Part shown: positions 36,288 to 41,750 of the stretch, in pieces
Layout: every line of letters begins with the position of its first letter
Numbering within the stretch: position 1 is the stretch's first letter
IMG/VR virus record: IMGVR_UViG_3300010226_000010
Coordinates: 1 to 43,665 of that record
DNA from: a virus
Taxonomy: Duplodnaviria; Caudoviricetes
DNA length: 43,665 nt
Reading direction: 5' to 3' (one strand)
Program-made: the position numbers and the translations under genes
Notes under the pieces: generated by a model
What the model saw: the letters and a program-made list of their open reading frames with translations, nothing else
Told to the model about the DNA's origin: nothing
The model's database searches: none

Positions 36288-38391
36288 GTCCTGCCTCCGT
36301 GGATGGGCGCACAATCGGCCTTGACGCCATTGTCGCCGCGTTCAACTGCGCCTTGTAAGCCTCGATTTCCTTCTGCGCGTCGATCTTGATGCGCTCGATC
36401 TCCATTTCGGCCTGTATCTTCATGACCGCGATCTGCTTGTCCGCCTCGATCTTGGCCGCCGCCTGCTGCTGGTCGGCCTGCAACTTCATCGCGCTCGCCT
36501 GCTGGTCGGACTTGAGGTTCTGGTTCTCCTCGGCGAGCTGCTGCAATTTCTGCTTGCCTTGTTCGATCTGCTTCTGCACTTCCGGCGGAAGCTGGCCCTC
36601 CGCGACCTTCTCCATCTTCTCCGCGATTTTGTCGGCGCCCGGCCAATCGAGATTCTTCGCCAGTTCCGGCCCGATGATAGGGGCCGCCTGCGGAAAGGCG
36701 CGAATCATATCCGTCATCTGTGCCGCCGCCTCCTCGCGCTGCGTCGTGTAGCTCGGGCCGGTCGTCACGGTCAGGTCGTACTTGCCCACGGTCAGGTCAT
36801 GCAGCGCCGTCACCGTTTTCATGATCGGGTTGCCGTTCGGGTCTTGAAGGGGCTGTCCATCCTGCCCCATGGCCGGCTGCTGCATCGGCTGGCCCGTCTT
36901 CGGATCGCGCACCTGATACGGCGCGTTGACCTGCTTGGCCTCCTGCGTTCCGTCTTCGCCGATCACGCGCACGATCCGCTCGGCGCTGTAGACATGCGGT
37001 ATCAGGTCGATCAGGATACGGCCCGTATGCCGGATGGCCCGCGCGAGGTTGTCGATGAAATGGAAGGTCGAAACATCGCCCTCCCTTTGCCGCGCGAGGA
37101 TCGCCTTGCCGCTGGTTTCGTTCGACCGCGCCCCCAGGGAAGCATCATACATGCCGATGATCGCCTTCATGTCGTCCGATGCGTTCAATGCTTCCTGCAA
37201 GGCGCCTGCCGCCACGCCAACGTCAAGCGGCTGGCGCTGCGGAGGAACGTTGCCGGCGGAAGGAACAGGATCGTATTCGAGGAACGCATGGCTGCGCGTA
37301 TTCGCCGTCTGCCAGCGTTCGATATCGCTGTCGAAAGCGCCTTTTGGCCCGATGAACGGAACGCGCGGGGCGAGTGCCACCAGTTCCGTCGCCGACGAGC
37401 GCCAATAGTTGAAATTTCGCTGCGGGTCTTTCGCGTCGTGCACCAGCGAGCGGAAATAACGCTTGCCCTGCACATCGAACTCGTCGCCGTAGACCGGAAC
37501 GATGGGAATGTACCTCCCAGCCCACTGCACCGTTTCCAGCACCTCGGCTGCGGTCATGATATGCTGCACGACCTTGTGGGTCTTCGTCGTGCGCTGCGCC
37601 TTGAATTCAAGGAACTGCTGCGCCGCCTGGAAATCCGCATCCTTCTCGATCTGGTCCTTGCCATAGACCAGCATCGAGCCGTCGCGCGCGTCCCGGAACA
37701 TCAGTATTTCGCGCTCGACCTCCGTGCGCTTCCAGTATTCGGCGACCATCACCTCGTTTTCAGTGCGCCACGGCTCGCCGGCGGATGACCAGAGGCTATC
37801 GTCCCAATCAACCTTCGCCTTGTCGCCATATTGCGCCTTGAAGGCTGATTTCGTCATGCGGTCGACGACAAATGCCGTATTCCAATCGCTGCTGTCCGCC
37901 GCCGTAGAATAGGGGTCGCCATAGACCGCGAAGGGGTTGATCACCCGCTGTATCTGCAAATCCATGTCAAAGGTGTCGTCATAGGCATAATCGATGCCGA
38001 CGCGCCAATATCCGAACCCTCCTGTCACCGCGCACTCGACGCCGGTGTCATAGGCAACATCGGCGCTCGACGTGTATTCGATGTTGCGGATCAGGCCATT
38101 GATGACCTCCGCCGTCTCGGGATCGCTCTTGCTGTCTACCGGATGGACGTGGATCGCAGGCTTGTTCTGGCGCGCGTCGTTGACCACCTGACGGATGAAT
38201 GCCGGAAGTTTGTTGATGGTGAGACAGGGGCGGCCTTCACGTTCCCGCTGTTTGACGATCTTGTCCGGCCACTGCTCGGCAAGGCGCGAGAAGCGGATAT
38301 CATCGAGCGCGGCCTGCCTGTTCTGGTCGGACGCATCGGCGCTTTCGGTGAAGGCGTCCTTGGCTTCCTGAAGGATATCGTCGTCAGCCAT
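36280..38391 (-). CDS. Portal protein, P22-like
   Basis: 703 aa; RPCLTINKL, GGFGYWRV, YIPIVPVYG, SGKAILARQREGD, GKYDLTV.TGPSY.TQR; C-terminal coiled coil. Confidence 0.95.
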   Translation of the reverse strand: MADDDILQEAKDAFTESADASDQNRQAALDDIRFSRLAEQWPDKIVKQREREGRPCLTINKLPAFIRQVVNDARQNKPAIHVHPVDSKSDPETAEVINGLIRNIEYTSSADVAYDTGVECAVTGGFGYWRVGIDYAYDDTFDMDLQIQRVINPFAVYGDPYSTAADSSDWNTAFVVDRMTKSAFKAQYGDKAKVDWDDSLWSSAGEPWRTENEVMVAEYWKRTEVEREILMFRDARDGSMLVYGKDQIEKDADFQAAQQFLEFKAQRTTKTHKVVQHIMTAAEVLETVQWAGRYIPIVPVYGDEFDVQGKRYFRSLVHDAKDPQRNFNYWRSSATELVALAPRVPFIGPKGAFDSDIERWQTANTRSHAFLEYDPVPSAGNVPPQRQPLDVGVAAGALQEALNASDDMKAIIGMYDASLGARSNETSGKAILARQREGDVSTFHFIDNLARAIRHTGRILIDLIPHVYSAERIVRVIGEDGTQEAKQVNAPYQVRDPKTGQPMQQPAMGQDGQPLQDPNGNPIMKTVTALHDLTVGKYDLTVTTGPSYTTQREEAAAQMTDMIRAFPQAAPIIGPELAKNLDWPGADKIAEKMEKVAEGQLPPEVQKQIEQGKQKLQQLAEENQNLKSDQQASAMKLQADQQQAAAKIEADKQIAVMKIQAEMEIERIKIDAQKEIEAYKAQLNAATMASRPIVRPSTEAGHG

Positions 38392-39707
38392 CAGCCCATC
38401 CAGCTTCCAGCCCCGCCGTGCGACACGGAAGGACGCGCTACCGGTTTTGCCGGGGTTTCATAGGCCACGCACATCAGCCCGAAGGCATCGGCACCATGGC
38501 TCGACCAATCGTGTTCGGGACCAAGGCCGATGTTGCGGGCCTCGTCCATTTTCTCGTGATACCAGCCGATCGCATCGATGCCGGCTGAACATTTAGAGGC
38601 ATTGAACCAGATCGACGGGAACGCCTTTCGCGCCGCCTCAACCCGCTTCATCGCCGCGCCCTTGCCCTGATTTGGGACAGTTCTGACCGAAAAGCCGGCC
38701 GCCCTTATGTGATCTTCGAACCGGATCGCGGTAATCGCGTCTTCCCTCGCGCCGTCATGTGGCAGGACGCACTCTGCGGTCGCATAGCCATTCGACCGCA
38801 ACCATTCCAGATGCGTCGCCAGCGGCTGCCCGACCGCCTCGTAATAATCCAACGCCCGGATTTCACGCCCGACGAACTGCGCTATCCATATGGCGGTCGC
38901 GTCCCGTACGCCGATGTCCCAAAACGCCTTGACCGGCAGGTTCGGATCGCGGGCAACGTTGCCGACCCGCCCTTCCCTCCTTGCGTCGATCAGGGCGCGC
39001 GCATAGTAGGCCCCGCTCAGAACCGTCGCGTATCCGCCTTCCCAAATGTGATCGTATTGGTCGGGCGTCTTGTTGAGGCAATCCTGCCGTTCCTGCTCCA
39101 GAACGCTGGGGAACCACGGGTTGTCCGACCAGTTGGACCGCACCACTTTCGCCCCGGTCGGGATCGCATCGCTGCGCAGCATCAGGTCAACCGCATCGGT
39201 CTTGCGCAGCGGGTTCCAACTCCACCACATTTCCGATTGCAAGCCGCGATTCCTGTCTTCCCATCGGATCGTCGGGCGCACCAGCCCAATCGACCTAGAC
39301 GAAATCGAGTGCGCTTCCTCACCCCACAGCCGGTGAAAGCCCTCGAAAGACTTGATCGAGTCCGCCGTGTGATCCTGGAGGCCCTGGAAGATCAGGATGC
39401 CGTCGCCTGGCGTCGCGATCCTGTCGTTGTAGACCTTGAAGCCGTCCGCCTCGCCAACCTTGAACTCGGCGAGCTTGCTTTCGATCAGGTGCTTCGCCGA
39501 ATCCTTGAGCGACTTCTGTATTTCGCGGGCGCAAATGCCGCGAAGCCCCTCCCCAGCCTCGCCGGGGAAACGCAATGCGTCTTCCACCATCAGCCCCGCG
39601 AAAAAATGAGACTTCCCCGAGCCGCGACCGCCCCATGCCCCCTTGTCGCGCGCCGGCTCAAGCAGCGGCAGGAATACCTCAGCCGTCTCGATTTGCAGCC
39701 CGGACAA
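38391..39707 (-). CDS. terL: Terminase large subunit
   Basis: GGRGSGKS, WGEEA, WNP, WDIG..D, HDWSSHGADAF; start (TTG) uncertain. Confidence 0.95.
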   Translation of the reverse strand: MSGLQIETAEVFLPLLEPARDKGAWGGRGSGKSHFFAGLMVEDALRFPGEAGEGLRGICAREIQKSLKDSAKHLIESKLAEFKVGEADGFKVYNDRIATPGDGILIFQGLQDHTADSIKSFEGFHRLWGEEAHSISSRSIGLVRPTIRWEDRNRGLQSEMWWSWNPLRKTDAVDLMLRSDAIPTGAKVVRSNWSDNPWFPSVLEQERQDCLNKTPDQYDHIWEGGYATVLSGAYYARALIDARREGRVGNVARDPNLPVKAFWDIGVRDATAIWIAQFVGREIRALDYYEAVGQPLATHLEWLRSNGYATAECVLPHDGAREDAITAIRFEDHIRAAGFSVRTVPNQGKGAAMKRVEAARKAFPSIWFNASKCSAGIDAIGWYHEKMDEARNIGLGPEHDWSSHGADAFGLMCVAYETPAKPVARPSVSHGGAGSWMG

Positions 39708-39978
39708 TGATGCGCTCGATCTTGTGGACGAGATTGATTGCCCCGTCCTCGCCTTCGCCGGCCACCGGCTGGACCGGCTTGCCCCATCCGCGATCAAGAA
39801 TGGCCGTCGCTGCCGAGACTTTTGCAGCGGCGGGCGACTTGCCGTTTTCCATCACGCGAACAAGCGTGGCGATGGCGTTTTCGGTCTGTGCCTGAGCGAG
39901 TTCCCGGAGGCGGGCATCAAGTTTTGGCCGACCGCCTGGATTGCCAGAGCGGCCTTTTTCAAAAGGCTTGCCAACCAT
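39679..39978 (-). CDS. terS: Terminase small subunit (DUF5681-like)
   Basis: FEKGRSGNPGGRPK, AATAILDRGWGKPVQ. Confidence 0.85.
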   Translation of the reverse strand: MVGKPFEKGRSGNPGGRPKLDARLRELAQAQTENAIATLVRVMENGKSPAAAKVSAATAILDRGWGKPVQPVAGEGEDGAINLVHKIERIIVRAANRDG

Positions 39979-40025
39979 GTTGTTACTCCGCTGTTCTCAG
40001 CGTATTGTCCGCCGCCCTTCCGCGC

Positions 40026-40253
40026 TCAGTCATCGGACTCTCCGAACACGATCAGGCGCTTGGCCTTCTCCATCAGGACGAGCGTCTCGCCGCCGTTGGC
40101 ATTGCCGGCCACATAGAGTTCGCCGGCCTCTGTCTCTCCGAGAATGGCCACGCGGTCGAAGTTCCTGGCCTTCGCCGCCTCAAGGATTTCGCTCGCATCG
40201 AAGCGGTAGCCCTCGCCGACCAGCGCAGGCTTGAACTGAACGACCTCAGCCAT
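40026..40253 (-). CDS. Hypothetical protein
   Basis: GGAGG RBS; MAEVVQF...LMEKAK. Confidence 0.7.
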   Translation of the reverse strand: MAEVVQFKPALVGEGYRFDASEILEAAKARNFDRVAILGETEAGELYVAGNANGGETLVLMEKAKRLIVFGESDD

Positions 40254-40265
40254 TGGGCCTCCGAT

Positions 40266-40292
40266 AAGAAAAGGCCCGCCGTGAGCGAGCCT
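40266..40292 (-). terminator. Rho-independent terminator
   Basis: AGGCTCGC-TCACG-GCGGGCCT-TTTCTT. Confidence 0.75.
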
Positions 40293-40539
40293 GTTTGCCT
40301 CTATGGCTTGGGATGCGGCGATTGGGTTCGGGGCTGCCCGGCAAACCAAATCTGCCGGACCCGTCGAGCTTTCATGTCAGGCACTCGATCTCGCCTTGGG
40401 CCGATGCCCGCCTCGCATCTGTTCCCGTCATGGACGGGGGAATGAATCGCCCCCGCTGCTTTCCGGTTGGGATCGGCTTTCAAGCAGCATATTCCGATCC
40501 GTGCCGACGTGGGCGAACTCTATCCGCTCTCGTGGGAAC
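40293..40539 (-). ncRNA. Unknown structured RNA with H-type pseudoknot, directly 3' of the tRNA CCA
   Basis: GTTCCC/GGGAAC closing helix; GGATCGG/CCGATCC crossed with GCTGCTT/AAGCAGC; GGGGG/CCCCC, TCGAG/CTCGA and CCGGCAGA/TTTGCCGG helices. Confidence 0.55.
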
Positions 40540-40595
40540 TGGTTGCACAGGAACGATTCGAACGTTCGACCTTCTGGTTCGTCTGGCACTGTGCT
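40540..40595 (-). tRNA. 3' half of a tRNA-fMet-like gene / 56-nt D-armless mini-tRNA
   Basis: AA-CCAGA-AGGTC-GAACG-TTCGAAT-CGTTC-CTGTGCA-A-CCA; local GCACAG (40594-40589) pairs with CTGTGC. Confidence 0.8.
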
Positions 40596-40618
40596 GAACG
40601 ATCTGTTACCATACCAGC

Positions 40619-41011
40619 ATGAACACGAAGGCTGTCGGCGAACTAAGCGAAGCGATCATCTTGGCTCATTTGATGCGCCGGGGATGGGCAGTGTCTCTAC
40701 CCTTCGGGAACAACCAACGCTACGACATGCTCGTTGACACAGGTGAGAAAATCCTTCGAGCACAATGCAAGACTGGCAGATGGCTCAACGGCTGCGTTGA
40801 GTTTGCCAGTTCCAGCAAGAACGGCTTTACGGGGGTCCGCACGTCATACGCGGGCCAGATTGACGTGTTCCTCATCTATAGTCCGAAGACCGAGCAGGTT
40901 TACATGTTCCCCGGTGAATTGGCTGGCCCCACATTCGTCCGGCTTCGCGTCGACCCAAATCGCGGCGGGGCCACTTCGGGCATTAGGTGGGCGGCTGAGT
41001 ATATCGTATGA
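40619..41011 (+). CDS. PD-(D/E)XK homing endonuclease, I-Ssp6803I / PDDEXK_5-like
   Basis: MNTKAVGELSE...GW.V..P.G....YD...D......Q.K...Y....D....Y......Y.FP follows the I-Ssp6803I pattern as recalled; TG-n-TACCAT extended -10 at 40604-40612. Confidence 0.85.
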   Translation: MNTKAVGELSEAIILAHLMRRGWAVSLPFGNNQRYDMLVDTGEKILRAQCKTGRWLNGCVEFASSSKNGFTGVRTSYAGQIDVFLIYSPKTEQVYMFPGELAGPTFVRLRVDPNRGGATSGIRWAAEYIV

Positions 41012-41044
41012 GCCAAGCGAGCTACCGGACTGCTCCACACCGAC
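41008..41044 (-). tRNA. 5' half of a tRNA-Met(CAT), initiator-like, interrupted after the anticodon
   Basis: GTCGGTG-TG-GAGC-AGTCCGGTA-GCTC-G-CTTGG-CT-CAT; D-arm nearly identical to alphaproteobacterial tRNA-fMet. Confidence 0.8.
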
Positions 41045-41051
41045 AAGAATC

Positions 41052-41130
41052 AGAAAGGCCGCCGAAGCAGCCCCTCAGGCGCAAAGCGCCAACCTGCGAA
41101 CAACATGCCAAACTCGGTTACCGTAGTCAA
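41052..41130 (-). promoter_or_regulatory. Late promoter followed by a terminator-like hairpin (pR'/tR'-like)
   Basis: TTGACT (41130-41125)-17-CATGTT (41107-41102); GGGCTGC-TTCG-GCGGCCT-TTCT at 41074-41052. Confidence 0.6.
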
Positions 41131-41750
41131 TCGGTTTTCGCACGACGCTCACGCTTTGTTGTGCGTCCTTTGTAGAGCGCCAGATCATGTTTGGAAGGCA
41201 TCTGATACTTCGTCACGGGCTTGCTGGACGCCTTTACGGCGATGCCCCATATCCTGGCTAGGTCATCGAGCGAAGCGCGCAGATTGTCCGTTGCGGTCAG
41301 CCTGTCGCGTTTCTCGGTGAAGATTTCCGTCATGGCTGCACCTTCCCCGCATACCCTGCGAACCAGTTCATAATTCCGCACGCCCAGCACTCGCTCGGCT
41401 TCTGCAAGTCTCCGAGCCGCCTGCATCTGCATCACATCGATAGGGTCCGCGATTTGGCCGCCGTCCACCTTGTCGCGGCTGTAATCCATGGCTTGTGCCC
41501 CTGCTCCACCTGTCGCTTCCCAATGCTTGCGAAACCGCGTTGCCGCCTCGGCCTGCCCTTCATCGATCAGTTTCCGAGCGGCGAGCGTCCCAACCGCGCT
41601 CTCGCGGACATTCACCGCAGCCCTGATCTTGCGCGGGATGCTGGATTCGCCTTCAAGGTCGGGACGCCAATACGGATTGTCGACATAGGCCGGTTGCAAT
41701 TCCATCTTCCCGAATGTCAGTGGATCGCGCTTCCGCCGCTTCTTTGCCAT
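41127..41750 (-). CDS. Putative late-gene regulator/antiterminator (DUF6456-like)
   Basis: NVRESAV..L..R..I...Q..AA.RF, AMDYSRDKVDGG, VCGEG, LR..LDDLA..WG; sits at the Q position. Confidence 0.7.
   Translation of the reverse strand: MAKKRRKRDPLTFGKMELQPAYVDNPYWRPDLEGESSIPRKIRAAVNVRESAVGTLAARKLIDEGQAEAATRFRKHWEATGGAGAQAMDYSRDKVDGGQIADPIDVMQMQAARRLAEAERVLGVRNYELVRRVCGEGAAMTEIFTEKRDRLTATDNLRASLDDLARIWGIAVKASSKPVTKYQMPSKHDLALYKGRTTKRERRAKTD

Follow-up and report, generated by a model that had tools for sequence, protein, structure and literature searches.

An intron-less I-Ssp6803I-like endonuclease gene in the anticodon of a chimeric phage tRNA-fMet-type gene, probably placed by homing

The homing endonuclease I-Ssp6803I, encoded in a group I intron of the Synechocystis tRNA-fMet gene, recognises a target that the available part of PMC3384342 describes as a 23-bp pseudo-palindrome. 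Other phage endonuclease genes do without an intron, and for the type represented by mobE of Aeh1, mobA of T4 and SegB of T4 the accessible portions of PMC2988022 and PMC3984707 describe spread by break repair with co-conversion. A form of self-control is known from I-TevI of the T4 td intron which, as far as the text at hand of PMC2988022 goes, binds a target-like site in its own promoter region, cuts it poorly and represses itself through it. Finally, the tRNA genes of Lak megaphages contain highly conserved introns that belong to no Rfam class and some of which hold another tRNA, and no earlier report of introns in phage tRNA genes existed, according to the part of PMC6784885 that was available. 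Our literature search, outside which most subscription papers lay, returned no description of an intron-less I-Ssp6803I-like gene in a phage tRNA gene.

Here we describe such an arrangement in the virus record IMGVR_UViG_3300010226_000010 (Caudoviricetes), which was analysed over its whole length (positions 1-43,665, hereafter the window). The phage is likely a temperate podovirus since Pfam and PHROGs identified an integrase, a P22-like portal, a terminase and ejection proteins. As the best phage matches of its tRNA are found in Caulobacter phages and in Sinorhizobium phage phiLM21, we infer an alphaproteobacterial host. Three HNH endonuclease ORFs are present elsewhere in the phage (8087-8617, 17625-18245 and 19884-20579).

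The split tRNA gene, its nuclease and a predicted promoter

The tRNA-fMet-like gene is located on the minus strand. Its 5′ half (nt 1-36; 41008..41044, 37 nt in coordinates) belongs to the resident gene and ends in U33-C34-A35-U36, and its 3′ half (nt 37-76; 40540..40579, 40 nt) has an intact T arm and ends in CCA. The two are separated by an insert of 428 nt (40580-41007) that directly follows the anticodon and of which only 39 bases are outside an antisense nuclease ORF. The TGA stop codon of this ORF (41009-41011) is the complement of tRNA residues U33-C34-A35. We re-read the coordinates, the halves and the stop overlap that had been given in an earlier note on this DNA, and all were confirmed. 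That note had also stated that removal of the insert restores a 7-nt loop. This is the case, but the product is not a normal tRNA: the rejoined halves form three of seven acceptor pairs, four of five anticodon-stem pairs with one wobble, and all five pairs of the T stem. Since A is the first base of the insert as well as of the 3′ half, the insert can be placed at 36/37 or at 37/38, which leaves its borders uncertain by one base. Positions 1-2 of the acceptor stem are an unusual unpaired G-T in the window (41044-41043), and the same was observed in phage locus L008 and in phiLM21 (L136).

ARAGORN at default settings called no tRNA in the window; with the threshold lowered to 70% it detected the rejoined gene, in a distorted fold, and a low-threshold run allowing long introns gave 164 calls that were mostly due to chance and were set aside. 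The halves were located by a stem-pairing script, since a half-tRNA profile based on 420 phage tRNAs missed the 5′ half of the window. Split tRNA genes of this type escape standard tRNA finders entirely.

The nuclease ORF (40619..41011, plus strand) encodes 130 amino acids and matches PF11645 (PDDEXK_5) over residues 1-128 with an E-value of 1.8e-30 and 106 bits, the curated Pfam cut-off being 26.1. Its only sequence match in the PDB is 2OST, the structure of I-Ssp6803I (E 9.4e-6). Residues E8, E11, D36, Q49 and K51, which we take to be the catalytic positions of a PD-(D/E)XK-type motif, have counterparts in the alignment with 2OST and do not vary among 49 aligned homologues. By these matches the protein is a full-length PDDEXK_5 family member with an intact motif; an I-Ssp6803I-like PD-(D/E)XK ORF had been proposed from the letters of the DNA. 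Its closest protein relatives are 67-87% identical, and the only one of them with DNA context is L001 (76%), with which it shares 99 of 130 identical residues at a pN of 0.18 and a pS of 0.77. By this comparison the ORF is under purifying selection. At the L001 locus (2418-2905), which is upstream of terminase genes, the tRNA remnant is differently deleted: the D arm and the anticodon are gone, and what is left is the acceptor strand with U8 at one end and, at the other, the stem strand with the T arm and CCA.

The nuclease is likely transcribed from its own, leaderless promoter, as the earlier note had predicted. Our reading of the sequence places this promoter at 40583..40618 on the plus strand, with a weak -35-like hexamer and a TG-extended -10-like site (TG at 40604-05, hexamer at 40607-12) separated from the ATG by 6 nt. 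L001 and L045 share this register, and the layout of L043 is the same apart from its longer leader; a consensus promoter scanner did not call the extended -10-like site. In loci of a tRNA-Asn clade of the family (L019, L090) the broken anticodon loop itself reads as a perfect -35 hexamer, about 20-43 nt upstream of the ORF.

A 23-bp look-alike of tRNA-fMet anticodon-arm DNA (40579..40601, plus strand) overlaps the -35 region. It is a 9-5-9 pseudo-palindrome, of which the left arm equals nt 24-32 of a putative donor-type allele in all nine bases (run X10, see below; compared by eye), of Rhizobiaceae tRNA-fMet in eight and of the resident allele in seven, while the right arm agrees at 6/9 and the centre differs from the anticodon loop. 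With a matrix of ten fMet-like arms the site ranked fifth among the 23-mers of the window (p ∼0.0035 for the upstream region). Against the window's own halves it has 13/18 arm matches, and 9 of 413 control tRNA arms score as high; the corresponding sites of L043 and L050 have 14/18 matches to their own tRNA arms, reached by none of the 413 control arms in either case, the register for these comparisons having been chosen after inspection of the window and L043. Under the shared matrix the upstream sites of L043, L050 and L001 were not significant, and in L001 the left arm is the 3′ half itself, so that it would be circular as operator evidence. An operator common to the whole family was considered and rejected, as an unconstrained scan for the own target gave p≤0.05 in 4 of 48 loci (binomial p 0.22). 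For the window we put the odds that the look-alike serves as an operator for autorepression at about even.

Two tRNA alleles and relatives with an empty site

When viral contigs were scanned for the 5′ half, six loci were found, all with an intact tRNA-Met. One of these, L008 on record G001, is syntenic with the window, with 90.6% identity over 36335-40044 (portal to terminase) and 100% identity over 41007-41077, and 21 of 25 bases directly after the CCA are identical. Its tRNA-Met gene is uninterrupted and has a 5′ half identical to that of the window, and no PF11645 match was found in G001, a record that is 82% complete. The alignment to related phages thus revealed an empty site at this very locus, and in the absence of any ribozyme match (see below) the nuclease is, as claimed before, a free-standing and intron-less one in a destroyed tRNA-fMet-type gene.

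The 3′ half tells a different story: 27 of its 40 bases are identical to L008 and 13 differ. As the T stem keeps all five pairs despite these 13 differences, the 3′ half is that of a different working tRNA-Met allele rather than a product of decay. Joined to the same 5′ half, the 3′ half of L008 gives five of seven acceptor pairs and complete anticodon and T stems (5/5 each). A donor-type allele does exist: one contig from run X10 agrees with the window's 3′ half at 39 of 44 positions and then reads on into a tRNA-Met that has no insert and whose stem matches. A second X10 contig matches 41007-41150 with two differences and departs from the window at the insertion point. Likewise, in five of eight public runs, contigs matching the 5′ half continue into other sequence at 41007, and in at least four of these runs the consensus of the loose ends gives a 3′ half without interruption. 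None of the eight runs covered the insert or contained a joint across it. A search for donors by T-arm pattern was abandoned, as it led to nine viral loci that all carried intact tRNA-Arg or tRNA-Asn genes and no nuclease; the T arm alone is insufficient for this purpose.

Judged by these comparisons, the halves are a chimera of two alleles, a resident 5′ half and a foreign 3′ half. Because they come from two alleles, excision of the insert would not restore the tRNA, and the rejoined tRNA is most likely dead at this locus. In the simplest history an L008-like gene was invaded, with crossovers inside nt 29-36 and near nt 70, and transfer would have run from donor to resident. The chimera could also stem from a later recombination instead of from homing itself. 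The gene appears to be dispensable: three related phage loci that share the upstream gene have no tRNA call, and the available part of PMC12429752 reports a tRNA gene for some but not all phiLM21-like prophages.

The insertion also removed the presumed target from the carrier. The best 23-mer of the window has 16/23 identities to the intact arm of L008 or of Rhizobiaceae. Rhizobiaceae tRNA-fMet arms are identical to the window's junction in 19 of 23 positions.

The split tRNA gene is located between a DUF6456 gene (41127-41750) and the terminase genes, a slot that in phiLM21 holds an intact tRNA-Met. After the DUF6456 gene, at 41053-41125, we observed a promoter-like site and a terminator-like hairpin. 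The hairpin (41053..41076, minus strand) is directly upstream of the tRNA 5′ half and is part of the resident context, as it falls in the 71-nt block identical to L008. In the place of this gene, promoter and hairpin region, phiLM21 has a NusG-like antiterminator; the three elements are possibly a late-gene control unit. Downstream of the tRNA, the non-coding stretch 40294-40437 has near-identical counterparts among the contigs of three public runs, and L008 retains part of it; it has no Rfam match, and the region 40290-40450 folds no better than shuffles (z -1.1).

Nuclease clades, their tRNA neighbours and the layouts of their loci

Family scans yielded 29 viral loci, the best 80 of 103 metagenome loci and one partial match in a genome collection, and a plasmid search gave four weak haloarchaeal matches. 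With the metagenome loci limited to these best 80, there were 87 loci with distinct proteins, and 70 could be labelled by the neighbouring tRNA gene or half. In a quick tree, the clade of the window (SH-aLRT 96) comprised 47 rows, namely the window, nine proteins without context and 37 loci. Counting the best 80 of the 103 metagenome loci, tRNA-Met was the neighbour in 17 of the 37 loci inside the clade and in one of the 50 outside, and tRNA-Asn in one of 37 and 17 of 50, respectively; some of the tRNA labels had been assigned manually, and loci that are related do not count as independent. This distribution suggests that nuclease clades have tRNA-specific targets, and it supports tRNA-Met as the likely target of the window nuclease.

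The loci follow four layouts. In the majority, which includes Kuttervirus and My1 records, the nuclease gene is located beside an intact tRNA. In a second layout a split tRNA encloses the nuclease together with a spare tRNA (L019, L023, L025, L200, L223), and a third has an antisense nuclease with a replacement 5′ half (L048/L050). In the fourth the nuclease alone follows nt 36, antisense in L043 and in sense orientation in L051, L073 and L206. L043 and L048/L050, whose proteins are about 50% identical to that of the window, have its exact antisense junction, with the stop codon on U33-C34-A35; a relative sharing this junction comes from an unrelated phage. In the sense inserts of L051 and L073 the anticodon is overlapped by the start codon and nt 36-38 by the stop codon. 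Both insert ends carry the anticodon triplet, which is what a staggered cut of 3 bases would produce.

A pattern scan for fMet-like 5′ halves with an unusual continuation gave at least 138 loci, of which at least 86 look like tRNA halves. The nuclease follows directly after nt 36 in at least four loci, and at the same site there are at least two distinct inserts without a nuclease, of 23 and 80 nt. The shorter was observed in L211 and L270 and the longer in L187 and L233, in each case after the match at 701-719, and the tRNA halves of the two loci that were examined, L211 and L187, are fully paired. Nine other loci split at 36/37 have 6-7 of seven acceptor pairs and complete anticodon stems (5/5), and the window is the exception among them. 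At L002:2392-2492 and L003:220-322 a sense nuclease gene is located directly behind a tRNA-Met with a hairpin-like insert of 25-26 nt in the anticodon loop, possibly a partnership of a nuclease with a mini-intron. Intact tRNA-Met genes beside the nuclease often have C33 (L040, L041, L048/L050), and many phage tRNA-Met genes have bases other than A at 37-38. It is possible that such variants are cleavage-resistant alleles.

Intron-less homing, its rivals and its relation to known systems

We consider it probable that the locus arose by intron-less homing into the anticodon of a tRNA-fMet-type gene, with one-sided co-conversion that left the tRNA dead and with a nuclease that represses itself. 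According to this model, the nuclease would attack a co-infecting or resident phage by cutting its anticodon-arm DNA where this has no insert, and break repair from the carrier would copy the cassette into the cut tRNA gene. In the present copy, a crossover would have occurred within about 8 bases on the 5′ side and about 30 bases into the 3′ side, so that a resident 5′ half faces a donor 3′ half. The carrier would be protected because insertion destroys the target. Predicted to be made from its own leaderless promoter, the nuclease may repress this promoter by binding the target look-alike, of which the centre is changed. Self-repression would matter since host-type tRNA-fMet genes resemble the target; with host-type arms being 19/23 identical to the window's junction, cutting of the host tRNA gene is a plausible hazard for the lysogen and reason for repression.

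Conceivably, the insert could be an intron after all. The closest characterised relative of the nuclease is intron-encoded, and one of the two border placements has a U before the insert and a G at its end. The earlier note had matched the borders to the anticodon-3′ group I intron position known from Azoarcus tRNA-Ile and Agrobacterium tRNA-Arg. This argument fails because the border slides by one base and because the last insert base in the eight other split loci is T in seven and C in one, but never G. Moreover, no Rfam family reached its gathering score in the whole window, no group I model matched 39900-41300 at E≤10, and no group I family was among 28 Rfam matches in eight related loci. 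The earlier note was right that there is no room for a ribozyme core, the non-coding bases numbering 39, and that P1 guide pairing is lacking, the longest perfect helix between the insert ends having 5 bp. Since the ORF is, in addition, antisense to the tRNA, the idea of a group I homing intron that has lost its ribozyme is largely refuted by these comparisons, and we regard it as very improbable. The insert might instead belong to a ribozyme-less class of tRNA introns excised by protein, the window holding a damaged copy with exons mismatched by recombination. In favour of this are the nuclease-bearing nt-36 inserts with well-paired halves in L043, L051, L073, L200, L206 and L223, the nuclease-free inserts of L211 (23 nt) and L187 (80 nt), the 25-26-nt inserts one base earlier in L002 and L003, a 9-bp helix in L043 between the anticodon loop and the end of the insert, and the tRNA introns of Lak phages, whose handling is left unexplained in the part of PMC6784885 at hand. 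However, paired halves would also be expected after a recent insertion, the 5-bp helix is short, and the product in the window would have no acceptor stem. A bulge-helix-bulge or an end helix as in archaeal or eukaryal anticodon introns was not found in the window, a structured RNA in the insert was dismissed because shuffled versions of the whole region fold equally well (z -1.3), and PHROGs detected no RNA ligase or splicing nuclease family in the 39 window ORFs, short ORFs being excluded. We therefore judge this reading unlikely. A broader version is rather unlikely as well: phages would carry undescribed ribozyme-less tRNA-Met introns, removed by protein and ranging from 23-base forms without a nuclease to forms of 400-500 bases with a self-repressing one, the window would be a fresh homing product with its exon pairing broken by co-conversion, and intron-encoded I-Ssp6803I would have arisen from this pool.

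Two further explanations accept the nuclease as free-standing. The cassette could have combined the nuclease with a replacement tRNA that has since decayed, in which case 40595-40540 would be a second tRNA lacking its D arm and anticodon. The 39-nt spacer indeed contains a 6-base partner of the 3′ acceptor strand (chance of a single test ∼0.001-0.002), and next to it come T and a purine, in the manner of tRNA positions 8-9; furthermore, the antisense layout is also that of L048/L050, where the replacement 5′ half is complete, and intact tRNAs are present inside the split tRNAs of L019, L023, L025, L200 and L223. Yet the operator-like site accounts for the partner bases, which make up its centre and the first bases of its arm, the same seven bases occur in L043 where no acceptor strand matches them, and the pattern was one of several searched in only 39 available bases. 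An inversion scar is another possible origin of the look-alike and acceptor-partner bases. We hold the decayed spare tRNA to be an improbable reading, which would alter the history of the locus and not the mechanism of homing. More improbable still, the nuclease might be a weapon against tRNA-fMet genes of the host or of rival phages and not mainly selfish. The arms of Rhizobiaceae tRNA-fMet match the operator-like site at 8/9 and 6/9 as well as the junction, and the ORF is under purifying selection. Against this, the phage has an integrase and is thus temperate, its closest relative found lacks the nuclease gene, and the cassette is located exactly in its target, as homing predicts.

With intron-less homing as the preferred reading, the locus is a new variant of that process rather than an intron. 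Beyond what the earlier note had noticed, it has a foreign 3′ half and a target-like site on the nuclease promoter, and it can be read as a homing event with a donor side and a recipient side. It shows that a nuclease of the I-Ssp6803I family can live without the intron that was thought to render it harmless, in an accessory phage tRNA gene that can seemingly be lost. Since a precise 23-bp target and a candidate non-cleavable operator can now be named, both are one assay away. As clades track different tRNAs (Met/Ile versus Asn/Lys), they may be a source of small site-specific nucleases that differ naturally in specificity, and clade-specific targeting is a possible reason for the variability of phage tRNA anticodon arms. 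The locus furthermore belongs to a wider, unexplained class of phage tRNA inserts.

Among the known systems, I-Ssp6803I (2OST, PF11645) of the Synechocystis tRNA-fMet group I intron shares the family, the motif positions and the kind of target gene, and its target, of 23 bp in the available text of PMC3384342, is as long as the look-alike in the window. In contrast to I-Ssp6803I, the window nuclease is phage-borne, lacks a ribozyme, is encoded antisense and has its own predicted promoter, and its tRNA gene is broken and chimeric. Like the window nuclease, mobE in nrdA of Aeh1, mobA in gene 60 of T4 and T4 SegB are intron-less and located in or beside their targets, but they come from lytic T4-like phages and are of the HNH or GIY-YIG type, whereas the window encodes a PD-(D/E)XK enzyme. 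SegB is located between tRNA genes and cuts an intergenic site; the window nuclease is located in the anticodon and appears to kill the gene. I-TevI is a GIY-YIG intron enzyme, and the operator of the window nuclease, a PD-(D/E)XK protein, is a prediction drawn from three loci. For the Lak introns, the part of PMC6784885 that was available mentions no nuclease ORF, and unlike those introns the insert in the window is flanked by exons that no longer match.
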